NCBI GenBank assembly: GCA_009711705.1
Contig: VENG01000008.1
Coordinates: 99,535 to 163,534 of the forward strand
Length of the DNA stretch: 64,000 nucleotides
Source: Bacillota bacterium
GTDB lineage: Bacteria > Bacillota > Desulfotomaculia > Desulfotomaculales > VENG01
Direction of reading: 5' to 3'
Shown: positions 4,919 to 51,165 of the stretch, in pieces
Numbering within the stretch: position 1 is the stretch's first letter
Layout: each line of letters starts with the position of its first letter
Made by a program: the position numbers and the translations under genes
Notes under the pieces: model-generated
What the model was told of the DNA's origin: nothing
Databases searched by the model: none
Seen by the model: only the letters and a program-made list of their open reading frames with translations

Positions 4919-6058
4919 GAGATTTTAGGGTCGCTGCTTAAGGGTTAAAGTTCTTTTTTCGACGGGATTAACGGGATGTGCGGGATTAGTGATGGTGCTG
5001 TTTATTATTTGTTTGCTTAAATAGATGCTTATTTTTTATCATAACAGTGCTAGTAATAAAAGAAATTTAATGGAAATATAGGTTATAAAAAATCCTGGAT
5101 AAAGAAATCTAGGGTTACTGCTTAAGGGTCAAATCTTATTAGATAGATTAGTGATAAGTACTATGTACTGTTTGTTTTCCTTAGTTGACCAACTTTTTAC
5201 TATGACAGTGAGTACTTAAAAGAGTTTTAGTTTTTAATATGTTTTTAAAAATCCTGCTATCCTGTAATCCTGTCAGAAAAGAGACCCCAAAGAATTACAT
5301 GCAAATCTTTTAGATCTTAGAAAATAAATCTTGCCTTACAATCACAGTAAATAAAGCTTTACTGACTTACGTATCTTTAAATCCCACTAATCCCGTAAAT
5401 CCCGTCAAAACTCACATGAAACATATACACAAACTAGAATGAAAATTTATTTTCGTAAAAAAAATAGCAAAGATACAAGATTGTCATTCTGAGTGCAGCG
5501 AAGAATCTGAGTATTTATGCGACTTTTAAGATTCTTCATTTCACTTCGTTTCATTCAGAAAATGACATGAATCTGGACTTTTTCAGCAGTCCCGGACGAG
5601 TCCTCTTGCTTCCTTGCTTAAAAGTATTGTTTGGGTCTTGGCTTATGGGTCTTTTTTTCTTTGACAGGATTACAGGATTTGCAGGATGCTTTGGGGTCAT
5701 TGCTTTTGGGTCTTTAAAAGCATTTTTAAATTGTTTGCTTTAGAACTTTGGACTTGTCCAAAGCTCTGTTTAGATGATAAAGGCTTTCGATTGAGTTTTT
5801 ATTTTTTAAAAAATCCTGTTGATCCTGTTAATCCTGTCTAAAAAAATTGTTTGCCTCAAAGCCCCACATGCAAAGCCTTTTATCCCGCTTATCCCATTGA
5901 TCCCGTCAAAACTCACATGAAACATATACACAAACTAGAATGAAAATTTATTTTCGTAAAAAAAATGACCCAAAAGAACTACTTGCAAATCTTTAAATCC
6001 CACTAATCCCATAAATCCCGTCAAAAAACTGACCTCAAAGAACTACATGCAAATTCTT
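4919..6058. repeat. ORF-free intergenic region filled with copies of a ~60-65-nt unit (triple 9-nt sub-repeat WWATCCYRY + GTCAAAA + GACCYCAAAGAAYTACATGCAAAT)
   Basis: Forward triples at 5249..5280, 5379..5410, 5811..5846, 5880..5911 and 5995..6027; reverse triples at 4961..4987 and 5660..5687. No ORF >=60 aa in the supplied track. Confidence 0.85.
5483..5566. repeat. 84-nt imperfect palindromic element
   Basis: GTCATTCTGA..GAAGAATCT (5483..5508) pairs with AGATTCTTC..TCAGAAAATGAC (5529..5566). Confidence 0.7.
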
Positions 6059-44811: not shown

Positions 44812-45231
44812 ATGACTAATAAGGAGATGAGAAAGATGAGTATAGATAATTACGTCAAGATTTTTAAAGCTTTGGGTGAGCCCTCGCGATTACGAATGTT
44901 AAAAATATTGTCGGTAAGACCCATGTACGTGTGTGAGCTGGAGAAAGTGCTGCAAATGAGCCAGCCGAGAATATCCCAGCACCTGCGGGTAATGAAGCAT
45001 GCCGGGCTGGTAACAGAGCGCAAGGAGGCCCAGCGTACCTTTTACGCCCTTAAAATTGATTATCTTGATGAACAGTTTAAAGAATTGCTGGAATTCTTCC
45101 ATGCAGATTTGGAAAGCCTGCCGCTTTTTATCGAGGAATACCAGCGGCATAAAGAGCTGGAGGAGGATTCCGGAGTGGCACAATGTAAGGAAGGGAAAAC
45201 AGAGGCGGTAAAATTGGAGCAGGAGGCATAA
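44812..45231 (+). CDS. ArsR/SmtB family metalloregulator
   Basis: LGEPSRLRMLKIL...VCELEKVLQMSQPRISQHLRVMKHAGLV. The likelier start is ATG 44836, 9 nt after AAGGAG. Confidence 0.85.
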   Translation: MTNKEMRKMSIDNYVKIFKALGEPSRLRMLKILSVRPMYVCELEKVLQMSQPRISQHLRVMKHAGLVTERKEAQRTFYALKIDYLDEQFKELLEFFHADLESLPLFIEEYQRHKELEEDSGVAQCKEGKTEAVKLEQEA

Positions 45232-45409
45232 ATTAAATAGAACTGTTATGATCATTGCCATTAAGCCGTTAATTAGGTGATCTTCATGGCCGGTTTTTAC
45301 AGGTTGAGCCCCCGTTTTCAAAAAGTGTGGCATTTTAAGGAAGCCTTTTCTTCCGGTTAAGGCAAGGCCGGAACATATTTAAATAAATAACAATAAGGAG
45401 ATGGTATTA

Positions 45410-45649
45410 ATGGAAATCAAAGTACTGGGAACTGGCTGCAAGAAGTGCAAAGAAACTGAAAAAGCCGTGCAAAAGGCAGTGGAAGAGCTCGGTATTCAGG
45501 CTGATGTGGAAAAGGTGGAAGAAATGGACAAAATAGCTGACTATAATGTTTTAATGACCCCGGGCCTAGTGATTAACGGAAAGGTAAAGGTAACCGGGCG
45601 GGTACCCAAGCACAAGGACATTCTTAAGTACATTAAGGATGAAATGTAA
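45410..45649 (+). CDS. thioredoxin-fold redox-active disulfide protein 2 type
   Basis: MEIKVLGTGCKKCKE...MTPGLVINGKV; CxxC motif. ATG 45410 is better spaced from AAGGAG than track start 45401. Confidence 0.75.
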   Translation: MEIKVLGTGCKKCKETEKAVQKAVEELGIQADVEKVEEMDKIADYNVLMTPGLVINGKVKVTGRVPKHKDILKYIKDEM

Positions 45650-45750
45650 AATAAAAAAACCATGAATTTGATTTGCCCGAGAAGACTCTTCACCGTGATA
45701 GCAAGTAGTTAACTATATAGAGATAAACATGGCAGTTGGGAGATGACAAT

Positions 45751-46806
45751 ATGACCTTGATGGGTGTGCTGCAGAGCGGGTTTAATGAGCTTCTGGAGTA
45801 CCTGTCGGCTCACGTACTTACTTGCCTGGTGCCGGCGTTCTTTATTGCCGGCGGCATAGCCGCGGTGGTGTCCACCGGGGCGGTGCTTAAATATTTCGGG
45901 CCCCGGGCGCCAAAGCACATGTCCTATGGTGTAGCTTCGGTGTCGGGAGCAATACTTGCTGTTTGTTCCTGCACCGTGCTACCCCTTTTTGCCGGTATTC
46001 ATAAAAAGGGGGCCGGTCTGGGCCCGGCGGTGACATTTCTTTTTTCCGGCCCGGCCGTTAATATATTGGCCATAGTGCTTACCGCCAGAAAAATGGGCTG
46101 GGAACTGGGCGTGGCCCGGGCCATAGGCGCAGTAGTGTTTTCCATAGTAATCGGACTTTTAATGGCCTTGATTTTTAAAAAGGAAGAAGATAAAAAACAG
46201 GCCGAAAAAGGTGACGACGGCGGTATGTTTGACGGGGAAGACGGTAAACCCGTGGGTCACCTGCTTGCCTTCTTTGGTGCTATGGTGGCCATCCTCATTT
46301 TCGGCACCGCATCCATACCGCTTTGGAGTAAAATAGCCATTGTAATGGCGCTCTTAAGTTTCTTGGCCACAGTGCTCATCGCCTGGTATGACCGGGATGA
46401 AGTGCAGGATTGGCTGGTGGAAACATGGAAGTTTGTCAAATTGATTTTCCCCATCCTGCTGGTGGGTGTGTTTGTGGCCGGAGTATTAAAGGCCGTAATT
46501 CCCGAGCAGTGGATATCGGCTTCGGTAGGCGGTAACAGCCTCTCATCCAACGTAGTGGCATCCGTGATTGGTGCACTGATGTATTTCTCCACCTTGACCG
46601 AAGTGCCCATCGTAAAGGCTTTGTTGGACATGGGCATGGGGCAGGGCCCGGCCTTGGCGCTACTTCTGGCAGGCCCGTCCTTAAGTTTGCCCAACATGCT
46701 GGTGGTCAGAAATGTTATGGGTACTAAGAGAACTATCGTATATGTTGTTATTGTAGTTGTAATGGCAACGTTTACGGGCCTGATCTTCGGAAACATTGTG
46801 ACTTAA
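45751..46806 (+). CDS. DUF318/ArsP-type permease
   Basis: AVCSCTVLPLFAGIHKKGAGLGPAVTFLFSGPAVN motif region. ATG 45751 follows GGGAG. Confidence 0.7.
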   Translation: MTLMGVLQSGFNELLEYLSAHVLTCLVPAFFIAGGIAAVVSTGAVLKYFGPRAPKHMSYGVASVSGAILAVCSCTVLPLFAGIHKKGAGLGPAVTFLFSGPAVNILAIVLTARKMGWELGVARAIGAVVFSIVIGLLMALIFKKEEDKKQAEKGDDGGMFDGEDGKPVGHLLAFFGAMVAILIFGTASIPLWSKIAIVMALLSFLATVLIAWYDRDEVQDWLVETWKFVKLIFPILLVGVFVAGVLKAVIPEQWISASVGGNSLSSNVVASVIGALMYFSTLTEVPIVKALLDMGMGQGPALALLLAGPSLSLPNMLVVRNVMGTKRTIVYVVIVVVMATFTGLIFGNIVT

Positions 46807-46813
46807 TTTTAAC

Positions 46814-46867
46814 GCAAGTGGGGACGGTTCTTGCTTGCCCGGGCAAGCAAGAACCGTCCCCACTTGC
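46814..46867. terminator. perfect 54-bp palindrome between convergent permease genes
   Basis: GCAAGTGGGGACGGTTCTTGCTTGCCC|GGGCAAGCAAGAACCGTCCCCACTTGC; 27-nt arms, no mismatch. Confidence 0.8.
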
Positions 46868-46877
46868 ACATTTGTAT

Positions 46878-47843
46878 CTAGACAACCCACGGCCCTATGG
46901 CATTAAAAACATAGCCGGTAAATATAATGGCCAGGGCTACCACGGCAATAAAGACACCGATCAGTTGGGGCTTAAGGACCTTGCGTAGGATAATCATCTC
47001 GGGAAAGGACAGCGCCGTTATGGACATCATAAAGGCCAGTGCCGTTCCTATGGCGATTCCCTTGCCTAAAAGAGCCTGGATGACCGGTATTGTTCCCACC
47101 GCGTTGGAATAAAGGGGAACACCCAGCAGCACCGCAATGGGTATGGCAAATAGGTTACCCGGCCCAGCCCACCTGGTGATAAGGTCTTCCGGCGCGTAGC
47201 CGTGAATGCCTGCTCCAACGGCTATACCGATAACAACGTAAATCCAGATCCGACCCACAATGTCTTTGACATTGTCCCAGGCGTACTCCACCCGGTCTCG
47301 CCAGGTCATTTCAGGCAGTTCAGCACCCGCTACGCCTACTCTCTTTTTAAATACATAATCCTCAACATAGCTTTCCATCTTTAGCTTACCAATTATTATA
47401 CCGCCGATTACGGCGATTATTACCCCGCTGACCGCGTAAATGGCGGCCAGTTTCCAGCCCAGTGCGGCTATAAGCAACACCACCGAAACTTCGTTAACGA
47501 TAGGTGAGCTGATAAGAAATGAAAAGGTAATTCCCAATGGAATGCCCGACTCAACAAAGCCTATAAATATAGGCACGGAAGAGCAAGATCAGAAGGGGGT
47601 AACCGTGCCCAGCACGGCAGCGGCGGCGTGCCCGGTGTATAAACTGTAGCCGCTTAGTAATTGCCGGGTTCTCTCCGGTGGAAAAAAACTGCGTACTATG
47701 CTGATAATAAATATCATTACAGAAAGAAGGATAATTATTTTAATGGTATCGTAAACAAAAAAGTTTATAGATTCACCCAGGCGGGTGTGTGGAGCAAGCC
47801 CCAGCAAAGTATATACAACATAATCAGCAAAGTTTTGAATCAC
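46878..47843 (-). CDS. DUF318/ArsP-type permease interrupted by a single in-frame TGA (47591..47589)
   Basis: Track ORFs 47589..47843 and 46878..47576 share one frame. Joined: ...GTVTPF-TGA-SCSSVPIFIGFVESGIPLG. GTG 47843 lies 8 nt after AGGAGG. Confidence 0.65.
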
Positions 47844-47986
47844 TTGGACAACCTCCTTCTAAGTATATAATGGCCGTTACAAGTTAATTTAATCATTGAT
47901 TAACATAACAAAAGAACACAACTGAAGTGAGGAAATGCTGCACTGGTGTGGAATTACATGTGTAGTTTTGGTATTGAATTTACTTA

Positions 47987-48010: not shown

Positions 48011-48108
48011 CTTCACCTATTTATTTACGTTCCGGAATGAAACAACTTCTGGTTTATTTTAATACAAAGCGCGTATTTTTTTAGAACAGTTAATCGAGGA
48101 GGTTGTAT

Positions 48109-49254
48109 ATGACCGGCAATAAAAAGACCTTTACCGAAACCAGTTTTAAAACTCAAGGCCCGGAGGATGCTCTGATCATTAAGTGCGAGGACGGCTGGCA
48201 CGTAATTCCCAGGGTTCCCGATACCCAAAAATTATATATTGAAGCAACTACACACTGTAATTTTTCCTGCACCACCTGCATCCGCAATTCATGGCAGGAC
48301 GACTTGTCACATATGGAGTGGCCTGTTTTTGAGCGCATTTTAGACAGCATCCCACATTTGCCTCAACTGGAGCGCGTGCACTTTGGAGGTTTTGGCGAGC
48401 CTTTCAGCCACCCGCGTATTCTGGAAATGTTAGCGATGGTTAAAGAACGTAGAGTGAAAATAGAAGCAATTACCAACGGTTCTTTGCTCACGGAAAAAGT
48501 AATTAATAAACTGGTTGACATACAGATGGATAAAATATTTATATCCCTGGACGGCCCCGACGAGGAAGAATACTGCAACATAAGGCAGGGAGCTAATTTT
48601 TCCGGAGTTCTGGATAACATTAGAATATTAAACAAGATCAAAGAACGTAAAGGTGTCCGTTTACCTGAACTGGGAATAGAGTTTGTGGCCACCAAAGACA
48701 ATTACCATAAAATGCCGCAAATGGCGTCCCTGGCCTCGAAACTGGGGGCCCGTCAATTAATTATTACCAATGTACTCCCGTATAATGAAGAAATGAAAGA
48801 TCAAATTCTGTATGATATGGATGATACAGATATAACCTTTGGGCATAATTCACCCCTTTTGCTGATGCAGGCACATTTGCCATATATGAAGCTGCGTACC
48901 GAACGCTACTGCAAGTTTGTCGAGGACAAGGCCATGGCAGTTAACCACAAAGGGTTTATCTCACCCTGTTACGCTTTTATGCACAGGTACAGTTGCTTCA
49001 TTTACGACCGGGAGAAAGAAATATACCCATTTTATATGGGTGATGCAAGTGAAAAGCCTTTGAATGAAATATGGACCAGCCTTACTTATATTAATTTTAG
49101 GCGGGAAGTAAAGGATTTCCGTTTCCCTTCCTGTACGGACTGCAAATTCCTGGACGGGTGTTCTTATACAGAAACCAATGAAGGCGACTGCTGGGGTAAT
49201 ACACCTTCCTGTGCCGACTGCCTTTGGGCCAGGCAGATAATCACCTGTCCATAA
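48109..49254 (+). CDS. radical SAM / SPASM-domain enzyme
   Basis: CNFSCTTC (CxxxCxxC) and a C-terminal Cys-rich SPASM-like region (CTDCKFLDGC...CWGNTPSCADC). ATG 48109 lies 7 nt after GAGGAGG. Confidence 0.75.
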   Translation: MTGNKKTFTETSFKTQGPEDALIIKCEDGWHVIPRVPDTQKLYIEATTHCNFSCTTCIRNSWQDDLSHMEWPVFERILDSIPHLPQLERVHFGGFGEPFSHPRILEMLAMVKERRVKIEAITNGSLLTEKVINKLVDIQMDKIFISLDGPDEEEYCNIRQGANFSGVLDNIRILNKIKERKGVRLPELGIEFVATKDNYHKMPQMASLASKLGARQLIITNVLPYNEEMKDQILYDMDDTDITFGHNSPLLLMQAHLPYMKLRTERYCKFVEDKAMAVNHKGFISPCYAFMHRYSCFIYDREKEIYPFYMGDASEKPLNEIWTSLTYINFRREVKDFRFPSCTDCKFLDGCSYTETNEGDCWGNTPSCADCLWARQIITCP

Positions 49255-49291
49255 GAATATTGTAATTGACAAAGGGTTATTGTTAATATTA

Positions 49292-49315
49292 TTATATAAG
49301 CAACAATTTATTTAT
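49292..49315. promoter_or_regulatory. degenerate 9-6-9 operator TTATATAAG-CAACAA-TTTATTTAT (site 2)
   Basis: 15 of 18 arm positions match sites 1/3. Overlaps the putative -10 downstream of TTGACA 49266..49271. Confidence 0.4.
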
Positions 49316-49340
49316 GTATAATAGGGAGTGTTATTAAGAA

Positions 49341-49586
49341 ATGGCAAATTGTTGCGACCCAAAAGCACCAAGAGTTTTTCAAATCCAAGTGGGAGACGGG
49401 CCGGTCGGCATTACAGGACTTGACCGTGCAATATCGGAAGTAAAGGCCATGGAGCCATTATCTGAAGAAAAGGTCAAGGAAGAACTATTTAAGAAAATAA
49501 AGGCACATAACTATATTCCTGACTCAGCCAGGGAAAAGTATTGTGTGGCTTTGTTTAGAGAATATCAAAAAGCTAAAAAAAGTTAA
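49341..49586 (+). CDS. 81-aa hypothetical protein with N-terminal vicinal Cys pair
   Basis: MANCCDPKAPRVFQIQVGDGPVGITGLDRAI...; weakly spaced SD. Confidence 0.5.
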   Translation: MANCCDPKAPRVFQIQVGDGPVGITGLDRAISEVKAMEPLSEEKVKEELFKKIKAHNYIPDSAREKYCVALFREYQKAKKS

Positions 49587-49633
49587 AGCAAACTTCAATG
49601 TATCAACAAATGAGGTTAAAAAATTTTTTTAAT

Positions 49634-49657
49634 ATATATAAAAATATATTTATATAT
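49634..49657. promoter_or_regulatory. 9-6-9 palindromic operator ATATATAAA-AATATA-TTTATATAT (site 3)
   Basis: Abuts the acr3 SD (AGGAGG). Confidence 0.55.
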
Positions 49658-49671
49658 TAGGAGGCTAAAAG

Positions 49672-50736
49672 ATGACGGAAACAGTTACCCGTAAACTCCC
49701 TTTTTTAGAAAGATATTTAACTGTATGGATATTCCTAGCCATGGCAGTTGGTGTGGGTGGAGGATATATTTATCCCTCTGTCGCGGAATTCTGGGGTAAA
49801 TTCCAGGTGGGAACCACAAATATACCCATTGCCATTGGTCTCATTATTATGATGTACCCTCCGCTGGCCAAGGTGAAATACGAAGAAATTGGTAAAGCTT
49901 TTAACAATACTAAAGTAATGGGACTTAGCCTTTTTCAAAACTGGATTGTGGGCCCCATCTTGATGTTTATATTGGCTGTGGTTTTTCTTAAGGATTTCCC
50001 TGAATACATGGTGGGTGTGATCCTGATCGGTCTGGCCCGCTGCATTGCCATGGTCATCGTGTGGAATGTACTGGCCAAGGGTGACACAGAATATGCCGCC
50101 GCTTTGGTAGCATTAAACTCCGTTTTTCAGGTACTCCTTTTTTCTGTTTACGCCTACATTTTTATTACCGTGCTTCCACAATGGCTTGGCCTCAAATCCT
50201 TGGAAATAGATATTTCCATGGCGGAAGTGGCCAAAAGTGTATTCATCTACCTGGGCATCCCCTTCATTGCCGGCATTATAACCCGTTTCACGCTCATGCC
50301 GGCCAAAGGTAAGGAGTGGTATGAAAATAAGTTTATTCCCAAAATCAGCCCCCTCACCCTGGTAGCGTTGCTCTTTACCATCGTGGTGATGTTTTCACTA
50401 AAGGGGAGCTATATAGTAGCTTTGCCCATGGATGTATTGAGGATAGCGGTTCCACTAGTAGCCTATTTCCTTATCATGTTCTTCTTCTCATTCTTCATCA
50501 GTAAAAAGGCCGGGGTAAACTACGAGCAGGCCACCACTTTGTCCTTTACTGCCTCCAGCAATAATTTCGAGCTGGCCATTGCAGTGGCTGTGGCGGTATT
50601 CGGCATAAATTCCGGGCAGGCACTGGCCGCGGTTGTCGGTCCCCTTATCGAAGTGCCCATAATGATCGGGCTGGTTAATGTTGCCCTGGGCTTCAAGCGT
50701 AAATATTTCGGTGACCAATTGGCAAACGCTAAATAG
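49672..50736 (+). CDS. acr3: ACR3-family arsenite efflux transporter
   Basis: [17 protein letters not shown]...[18 protein letters not shown]...[11 protein letters not shown]; 354 aa. Confidence 0.85.
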
Positions 50737-50802
50737 TAGCAAAAAATAAGCCGGGAGTGGTCAATTTACTCTCCCGGCATTATAATTACCGGAGTGAAAA
50801 GT

Positions 50803-51165
50803 ATGAAGGAATTTCTTCGTTTCTTAAAAATCATTGCCGATGACACCAGGCTGAAAATAATCGATATGCTTTCTCACCATGATATGTGTGTATGCGAAAT
50901 TATGCACCGGCTGAATATGTCCCAGCCCGCCGTATCTCATCACTTGAGGGTGCTGAAAAAAGAGAAAATAGTTTTAGACGATAAGGACGGCCGCTGGGTT
51001 TTTTACTCCCTGAATAAAGAAGCATTTTTCAATCAAGTGGAACATCTAAACACTGAGTTGTTTAACAGCATGCGGGAGAACCTTCGATGTCGTACCACTA
51101 CACGTGACTACGAGGCATGTAAAAGGATTGAGAATACTTTATGCTCACATAAAACAGCCAGGTGA
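50803..51165 (+). CDS. ArsR/SmtB family metalloregulator
   Basis: IADDTRLKIIDML...MCVCEIMHRLNMSQPAVSHHLRVLKKEKIV. ATG 50803 lies 8 nt after GGAG. Confidence 0.85.
   Translation: MKEFLRFLKIIADDTRLKIIDMLSHHDMCVCEIMHRLNMSQPAVSHHLRVLKKEKIVLDDKDGRWVFYSLNKEAFFNQVEHLNTELFNSMRENLRCRTTTRDYEACKRIENTLCSHKTAR

Follow-up and report, generated by a model that had tools for sequence, protein, structure and literature searches.

The membrane permease ArsP exports the trivalent organoarsenicals methylarsenite and roxarsone (PMC6205960). In the SO_0444 family, a group of Cu/Zn efflux proteins, the Cys-Ser-Cys motif is occasionally replaced by Sec-Ser-Cys, Sec being selenocysteine (Haft, bioRxiv 10.1101/2022.07.06.499078), and this family (NF033936, 'UxC') is the only selenoprotein entry with a PF03773-superfamily model in a 2026 review (PMC13188914). 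SaoE, the permease of the SAO locus of Clostridioides difficile, is reported never to be a selenoprotein and to occur always with the SaoP/A/B/X importer (Haft, bioRxiv 10.1101/2022.07.06.499078). For the bacterial selenocysteine insertion sequence (SECIS) element, the published consensus has a G among the first two bases of the loop, 16–37 nucleotides between UGA and loop, and a folding energy of −7.5 kcal/mol or below (PMC13188914). Here we examine a stretch of 64,000 nucleotides from the metagenome-assembled genome of a Bacillota bacterium (contig VENG01000008.1; hereafter the window) in which a permease gene on the minus strand, at 47843..46878, is interrupted by an in-frame TGA. Very probably this is one intact ArsP_1-superfamily gene of 321 residues, whose codon 85, UGA, is decoded as Sec.

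The window permease shares with the ArsP of Campylobacter jejuni the Pfam family name, the ars-operon context and a C-x-C pair in a membrane segment, and the two were compared on these features alone. The C. jejuni protein has Cys where the window protein is proposed to have Sec; Chen and colleagues reportedly found in 2015 that the Cys pair of the former is needed for transport. In the window protein the pair would be U-S-C at the C-S-C position, and its surroundings include ArsR, ACR3, an ArsE-type gene and a Cys-type paralogue. The window protein also resembles the SO_0444 selenoproteins (for example WP_014809615.1 of Desulfomonile tiedjei), with the same ArsP_1 superfamily, the same position of the proposed Sec-Ser-Cys and, for both, a predicted role in the export of soft metals. 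Unlike them, the TGA-containing permeases described here belong to Bacillota, are about 315–335 residues long and lie in an ArsR / thioredoxin-like / ACR3 context. The window protein scored 97.8 bits against NF033936, in two partial stretches and against a cut-off of 300, and representatives of the three clades of TGA genes described below scored 93–116 bits. These scores, far under the cut-off, set the TGA permeases apart as a subfamily separate from SO_0444, even though the Sec-Ser-Cys kind was already known. The best NCBIfam match of the window protein was SaoE (NF040736; 116 bits, cut-off 325), an ArsP-type exporter of anaerobic Bacillota with a CSC motif; over both models, the window protein and the clade representatives scored 93–122 bits (cut-offs 300 and 325). 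No SaoP/A/B/X gene was identified among the examined window genes near the permease, whose neighbours are ars genes, and the literature searched contained no report of Sec in this subfamily. The window gene encodes a predicted Sec-Ser-Cys transporter of the ArsP_1 superfamily and is unannotated in GenBank.

The minus-strand frame contains one internal stop only, the TGA at 47591-47589, with 84 sense codons upstream and 236 downstream; it starts with GTG at 47843 and ends with TAG at 46880-46878. A Shine-Dalgarno sequence, AGGAGG (47852..47857, minus strand, by reading of the sequence), lies 8 nucleotides 5′ of the GTG. When a Cys was placed at the stop, the joined 321-residue product matched Pfam ArsP_1 (PF03773) with 254.8 bits over positions 3–293 of the 294 of the profile, the gathering threshold being 32.3 bits. 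Among 63 residues invariant in 60 Cys-containing homologues, the window protein kept 62, the sole departure being the TGA itself, at proposed residue U85 (47589..47591). This codon replaces the first Cys of the motif PF-C-SC. PF-C-SC was found at the UGA column in 120 of the 120 best homologues from a search of 5.8 billion database proteins, and a second search gave Cys at that column in 112 of 120, the other eight being translations of TGA into W under genetic code 4. The paralogue present in the window (45736/45751..46806, plus strand) also has C-S-C at the aligned position. An initial annotation, made from the sequence of the window alone, had described this frame with its coordinates, its single TGA falling exactly on the first Cys of CSC, the AGGAGG ahead of the GTG and two otherwise undamaged halves; re-reading of the minus strand, the homologues and paralogue, the full-length ArsP_1 match and the retained invariant residues bear out each of these points. 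A separately made Logan assembly of run SRR9198947 (L001) shows the identical TGA split. Gene callers break the gene in two at the TGA, and the GenBank accession series MTI83793 to MTI83800 has no number for it, meaning that it was left unannotated as coding.

We then looked at the fate of the TGA in relatives. One genome per species (GTDB representatives) was scanned with a DNA pattern for P-F-TGA-S-C-S-S/T-x-P-x-F, and the 44 matches consisted of 35 permease genes, eight chance matches and one Chromatiaceae case. The 35 permease genes came from 35 other species, with few exceptions labelled as Clostridia or other Bacillota, and in all of them the frame was open on either side of the TGA. Thirty-three had enough flanking sequence for further comparison: 84–143 codons precede the TGA, 230–279 (mostly 230–236) follow it where the stop of the gene is reached, and identity to the window protein ranged from 44 to 79%. 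Clade A comprises genes from Sporosalibacterium, Thermohalobacter, Marinisporobacter, Wukongibacter, Anaerosolibacter, Caloranaerobacter and others, clade B genes from Thermincola (metagenome-assembled genomes only), Phosphitispora, Paraclostridium, Romboutsia and others, and clade C the window gene together with that of Desulfoscipio geothermicus DSM 3669. The Chromatiaceae match (L016, a metagenome-assembled genome, TGA at 1619) was the sole proteobacteria-labelled one that is permease-like after the TGA; its upstream translation was unrecognisable and a second TGA came 97 codons further. It may be a copy in decay, result from misassembly or lie on a contig of contaminant origin.

When the C-terminal part served as the protein query, the same picture emerged. 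All five matches more than 70% identical were truncated fragments of 198–224 residues, and the DNA behind them, from five distinct relatives, had TGA at that codon too. Among full-length Cys proteins, the best reached 67% identity over the C-terminal part and 66% over the whole protein. On the other side of the stop, the N-terminal fragment of 84 residues clustered with two further 84-residue fragments from other datasets. Database entries near-identical to the Paraclostridium TGA copy were full length with W at the site, as TGA had been translated under genetic code 4, and overall the homology searches returned solely fragments, Cys paralogues and such 'W' translations, with no full-length Sec entry among the matches. 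Comparison of orthologues had been named in the initial annotation as a way of checking its selenocysteine proposal, and the outcome agrees with it: TGA is kept in the 35 species and in all relatives more than 70% identical, and the more distant relatives have Cys at the UGA position. A plasmid homologue from Peptoclostridium acidaminophilum, considered as a possible Sec form, was rejected as it carries Cys.

In a neighbour-joining tree of 294 proteins the Sec genes fell into three or more distinct clades, all of which have Cys sisters, which implies several switches between Sec and Cys. A metagenome scan that allowed TGH at the critical codon gave TGT or TGC in all 120 among the matches listed; Sec forms are thus a small minority. 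Both types occur under one species name (L005 and proteins P0195-P0199, P0228): Paraclostridium bifermentans (L005) has a TGA copy, and a separate P. bifermentans genome has a Cys-type permease about 80% identical. This species includes a studied anaerobe that methylates arsenic and reportedly has two arsP genes (PMC11653729).

The reading frame is under selection on both sides of the TGA. Between the window and D. geothermicus-like sequences the synonymous sites were saturated (synonymous divergence, dS, of 1.6–2.2), and the ratio of nonsynonymous to synonymous divergence (dN/dS) was 0.07–0.10 upstream of the TGA and 0.076–0.090 downstream of it, the latter at a dS of about 1.7. Over all comparisons of the gene, it ranged over 0.06–0.10 upstream and 0.08–0.18 downstream. 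The codons beyond the stop are under strong purifying selection. For the closest comparison, between the window and a 94%-identical relative from another sample (L166), the downstream dN/dS was 0.18.

All 34 TGA genes that we analysed have two hairpins 3′ of the UGA. With the U of UGA taken as position 1, hairpin 1, GCCUAU-AUUU-AUAGGC in the window (47559..47574, minus strand), occupies positions 18–33 and lies on the codons for V/I-P-I-F-I-G. Among 33 distinct TGA genes, 97.5% of its cells were paired. The outermost pair is made of two synonymous third positions and was AU in 8 genes, UA in 8, CG in 7, GC in 7, GU in 2 and unpaired in one; the pair between the third positions of the Pro and Ile codons was UA in 19 and GC in 12. 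None of 500 shuffles attained the observed covariation score. The complete hairpin was present in 30 of the 33 TGA genes against 2 of 107 Cys genes, and the outer synonymous pair was formed in 32 of 33 against 33 of 107.

Hairpin 2, GUUGAGU-CGGGC-AUUCCAU in the window (47537..47555, minus strand; positions 37–55, loop 47548-47544), is the proposed SelB-binding stem-loop. Its consensus in clades A and C is GUGGAAU-CGGGN-AUUCCAC, with all seven pairs formed in 17 of the 18 genes of these clades and six of seven in the window. In the same TGA genes the codons of the stem are frozen (Val GUG in 17/18, Ser UCG in 18/18, Ile AUU in 18/18), and the third position of the loop and the codons beyond are freely variable. 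When only genes encoding the peptide VxxGIPL were considered, the complete hairpin was found in 17 of 18 TGA genes and in none of 32 Cys genes, which used mixed codons. Clade B has another hairpin 2, CGGCA-GGUC-UGCCG, offset by 1–2 nucleotides. In Paraclostridium and Romboutsia this becomes AUGCA-GGUC-UGCAU, compensatory pairs that replace CGGCA/UGCCG, alter two residues (Ser to Asn and Pro to His) and preserve the helix. Within the identical peptide TSAGLP, the Ser codon was UCG in 10 of 10 TGA genes and in 1 of 31 Cys genes.

An unguided consensus computed with RNAalifold predicted both hairpins. The TGA genes thus have, directly 3′ of the UGA, two covarying stem-loops that are rare or absent in Cys genes, which means that the structures are selected only alongside the TGA, as expected for a SECIS element, and excludes that the TGA genes arose by independent recent mutations. 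One Cys-type gene, sister to clade A, stood apart: the metagenome contig Ga0209414_1001763 (L111, match 4996-5028) retains five of six pairs of hairpin 1 and six of seven pairs of hairpin 2, with CCGGU in place of the loop CGGGU, and may represent a recent replacement of Sec by Cys with a decaying SECIS.

The initial annotation had judged the structures 3′ of the UGA weak as SECIS candidates. Of its first hairpin, GCCUAUA-UU-UAUAGGC, the existence stood, as it corresponds to hairpin 1 (47574-47559), conserved across the TGA genes, and the verdict 'weak' did not. The other hairpin that it named, AUUCC-AUUG-GGAAU, is distinct from the conserved hairpin 2, which overlaps its 5′ arm. The 7-base-pair helix GGCACGG/CCGUGCC enclosing the UGA does form in the window, where it had been described, and in the 94%-identical relative only; being missing from the other clades, it was rejected as part of the element. 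We also rejected a single long hairpin obtained by extending hairpin 1 downward, for hairpin 2 alone explains the constrained codons at positions 49–54 and two hairpins are therefore preferred. Single-sequence folding of the region was unremarkable (z-scores of −1.7 and −1.2), and no Rfam family matched the window or the SECIS region. The two-hairpin geometry accounts both for these unimpressive folds and for the earlier verdict: the comparison answers that objection, with two covarying hairpins in TGA genes only, off the usual single-hairpin model.

The closest known element is the SECIS of Escherichia coli fdhF, whose sequence we verified across 5,419 E. coli genomes and which, as here, is a hairpin located inside the coding region 3′ of the UGA. 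The apex of hairpin 2 in clade B, GCAGGUCUGC (GCA-GGUC-UGC), is identical to the SelB-binding apex of fdhF, and the CGGGC loop of the window clade is G-rich and related to the fdhF-type loop. The two differ in distance: the GGUC loop occupies nucleotides 22–25 in fdhF and the G-rich loop nucleotides 44–49 in the TGA permeases, which, unlike fdhF, have an extra conserved hairpin of 16 nucleotides in between and a spacing of 40–42 nucleotides, outside the 16–37 range.

From these comparisons we propose that the two hairpins together constitute the SECIS element. Hairpin 2, through its G-rich loop (CGGGN in the window clade, GCA-GGUC-UGC in clade B), would bind SelB carrying Sec-tRNA, and hairpin 1 would act as a compact spacer that sets hairpin 2 at the distance needed by a ribosome pausing at the UGA. 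In the protein, a selenol-thiol pair (U-S-C) would take the place of a dithiol and most likely form a soft-metal binding site on the translocation path, selenium giving tighter binding and faster ligand exchange at physiological pH. Because the gene is located among ArsR, ACR3, an ArsE-type gene and the Cys paralogue, the exported substrate is most likely a trivalent arsenical or organoarsenical, or a related soft metal(loid). Taken as a whole, the idea of a two-hairpin SECIS class (a spacer at the canonical site and an fdhF-like stem-loop about 24 nucleotides further downstream) serving a high-affinity trivalent (organo)arsenical exporter in anaerobes is tentative and, on balance, less likely than not.

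The position of the motif in a structural model is compatible with such a role. In the AlphaFold model of the 66%-identical Cys homologue P0001 (predicted local distance difference test, pLDDT, of 78.9), Cys85 follows a loop (82–85) between helices 68–81 and 86–98, and a pseudo-symmetric break is found at 240–245 in the other half of the protein. A motif at such a break between short helices is typical of a substrate site in a membrane core. Solved structures included none homologous in sequence, and none matched the fold significantly (best Foldseek E-value 0.02, TM-score at most 0.43), so that the fold offers no functional lead.

Several observations weigh against Sec decoding of the window gene or against parts of the mechanism. 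Neither hairpin alone satisfies the published SECIS consensus: hairpin 1 has a fitting spacing of 20 nucleotides, but its loop AUUU has no G and its energy is −5.9 kcal/mol; the loop of hairpin 2, CGGGC, has G as its second base, but the spacing of 40 nucleotides is too long and the energy in the window is −2.0 kcal/mol (−9.6 kcal/mol for both hairpins together). The window version of hairpin 2, with one U x C mismatch and two G-U pairs, is weaker than any other in its clade, for which about −6.3 kcal/mol is typical, and among the 18 genes of clades A and C a mismatch is seen solely in the window. The 64-kb window contains none of selA, selB, selC and selD and no other selenoprotein gene, and neither selA, selB and selD nor tRNA-Sec turned up in the related loci that were fetched. 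For Sec decoding in the source organism we argue from evolutionary conservation, and it is we who assign SelB binding to hairpin 2, the reverse or a joint role being also possible. The substrate and the benefit of selenium are likewise proposals.

One may therefore ask whether the family is truly one of selenoproteins and the window copy a decaying or poorly expressed relic, with a weakened hairpin 2 or with Sec decoding lost. L166 has the same weaker variant of hairpin 2, the two sharing the sole mismatched type among the 18, and it has lost two otherwise invariant residues, the N and A of PLYSNA; the Sec machinery, as stated, was not seen within the window. Against this, the window copy retains every invariant residue, its dN/dS with L166 is not close to 1, and hairpin 2 still has its CGGGC loop and its four upper pairs. 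Moreover, no difference separates the window from L166 between the start of hairpin 1 and the end of hairpin 2, and the 27 nucleotides just before hairpin 1 carry six synonymous differences, which suggests that the RNA is apparently still under selection. We regard a relic as unlikely and retain the reading of an active selenoprotein gene.

A second possibility is that the UGA is conserved and not decoded as Sec, the gene giving two polypeptides by re-initiation at GTG 47576 or being read through with Trp or Cys, with the hairpins serving in pausing or readthrough. A GTG does occur four codons past the TGA in the window, we infer Sec insertion from sequence, and the hairpins depart from the standard SECIS model. 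No start codon is conserved past the TGA: clades A and C have GUG, GUU or GUC at that codon, clade B AUU, AUA or AUC. Furthermore, the UGA coincides exactly with a Cys that homologues keep without exception, the classical Sec/Cys signature, the loop and stem of clade B are those of the SelB-binding apex of fdhF, and a second candidate Sec gene adjoins the permease at two loci. In these two clade A loci, Sporosalibacterium faouarense (L002 6022-6222, plus strand) and Wukongibacter baidiensis (L035 768-1010, minus strand), a second Trx_3 (thioredoxin-like) open reading frame downstream of the TGA permease has an in-frame TGA within I-C-*-G-G; both are candidate Cys-Sec selenoproteins of the same operon. 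As to the code itself, TGA is an ordinary stop in the window, where it terminates 10 of 48 long open reading frames, and a scan with relaxed limits gave no other credible Sec candidate there. The tRNA scan found no tRNA in the 64-kb window and no tRNA-Sec in 42 related loci. Many carriers come from genera, Paraclostridium and Romboutsia among them, that are known Sec users. A conserved UGA with another outcome is in our view quite improbable. A fresh nonsense mutation, the other reading offered by the initial annotation, in which a single step from TGY to TGA would just have inactivated the gene and left the open reading frames as halves of a young pseudogene, fits the split made by gene callers and the lack of a GenBank protein, but it is hardly credible and is ruled out by the same TGA in 35 other species and all close relatives, a downstream dN/dS of 0.08–0.09 at saturated dS against clade mates, no loss of an invariant residue, and a dedicated RNA structure that tracks the TGA and is absent from Cys genes. 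The selenocysteine reading of that annotation is the one supported, by the conservation of the TGA, the selected frame and the hairpins confined to TGA genes.

The permease gene lies within a metalloid island. Convergent to it is a cassette on the plus strand (44812..46806) with an ArsR repressor (44812-45231), an MTH895/ArsE-type thioredoxin-like protein with CxxC (45401-45649) and the Cys-type ArsP_1 paralogue (45736-46806). Between the stops of the two convergent permease genes is a palindrome of 27 + 27 nucleotides with 100% complementary arms and no loop (46814..46867), kept as 25 + 25 nucleotides in L166; it is probably a bidirectional terminator, though unusually long and perfect for one. 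Divergent from the TGA gene, a second group on the plus strand (48103..51165) comprises a radical SAM/SPASM maturase (48103-49254), a protein of 81 residues with the N-terminus MANCCDP (49341-49586) directly upstream of ACR3, the ACR3 arsenite exporter (49672-50736; GenBank MTI83800.1) and a second ArsR (50794-51165). Similar surroundings were found elsewhere: in clades A and B the TGA genes lie within ArsR / Trx_3 / permease / Trx_3 cassettes, often next to ACR3, and ArsR, Trx_3 and ACR3 are neighbours at most other TGA loci.

Some of these neighbours deserve a comment of their own. The radical SAM/SPASM protein exceeded the cut-off of TIGR04317, 'tungsten cofactor oxidoreductase radical SAM maturase' (425.9 against 380 bits), despite its location in an arsenic island; the same neighbour is present in L166, and a radical SAM/SPASM gene is also found in L169. 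The MANCCDP protein had no Pfam or NCBIfam match. Homologues 58–60% identical occupy the same position in L167, L168 and L171, each of which has a weaker second copy elsewhere, and the adjacent Cys residues point to a small protein that binds metalloids. In the D. geothermicus-like relatives the divergent gene is not a radical SAM one; it encodes an S-adenosylmethionine (SAM) methyltransferase of 394 residues (DUF7884 + CMAS + Methyltransf; L168 3969-5153, L169 2345-3529, L170 1461-2645), followed by a PF04060 iron-sulfur protein. This methyltransferase may link the permease to metalloid methylation.

Altogether, a gene so far recorded as two fragments, as a pseudogene or as a 'W' readthrough would be a selenoprotein gene in 36 or more species, nearly all of them carrying a Bacillota label, and one new annotation model could recover it. 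Cultivable carriers such as Desulfoscipio geothermicus, Paraclostridium bifermentans, Phosphitispora, Wukongibacter and Anaerosolibacter make the proposal testable in cultured organisms. The finding would extend the short list of selenoprotein transporters and put selenium on the path that the substrate takes through a permease of an arsenic island. The proposed SECIS element is strongly backed by covariation, yet it lies outside the spacing and loop rules used to detect bacterial selenoproteins, and other selenoprotein families may be overlooked in the same way; if the SelB stem-loop is indeed displaced, standard SECIS search tools would be blind to it. If the reading holds, selenium availability would be tied to arsenic resistance and to the release of methylarsenite in organisms that include P. 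bifermentans.

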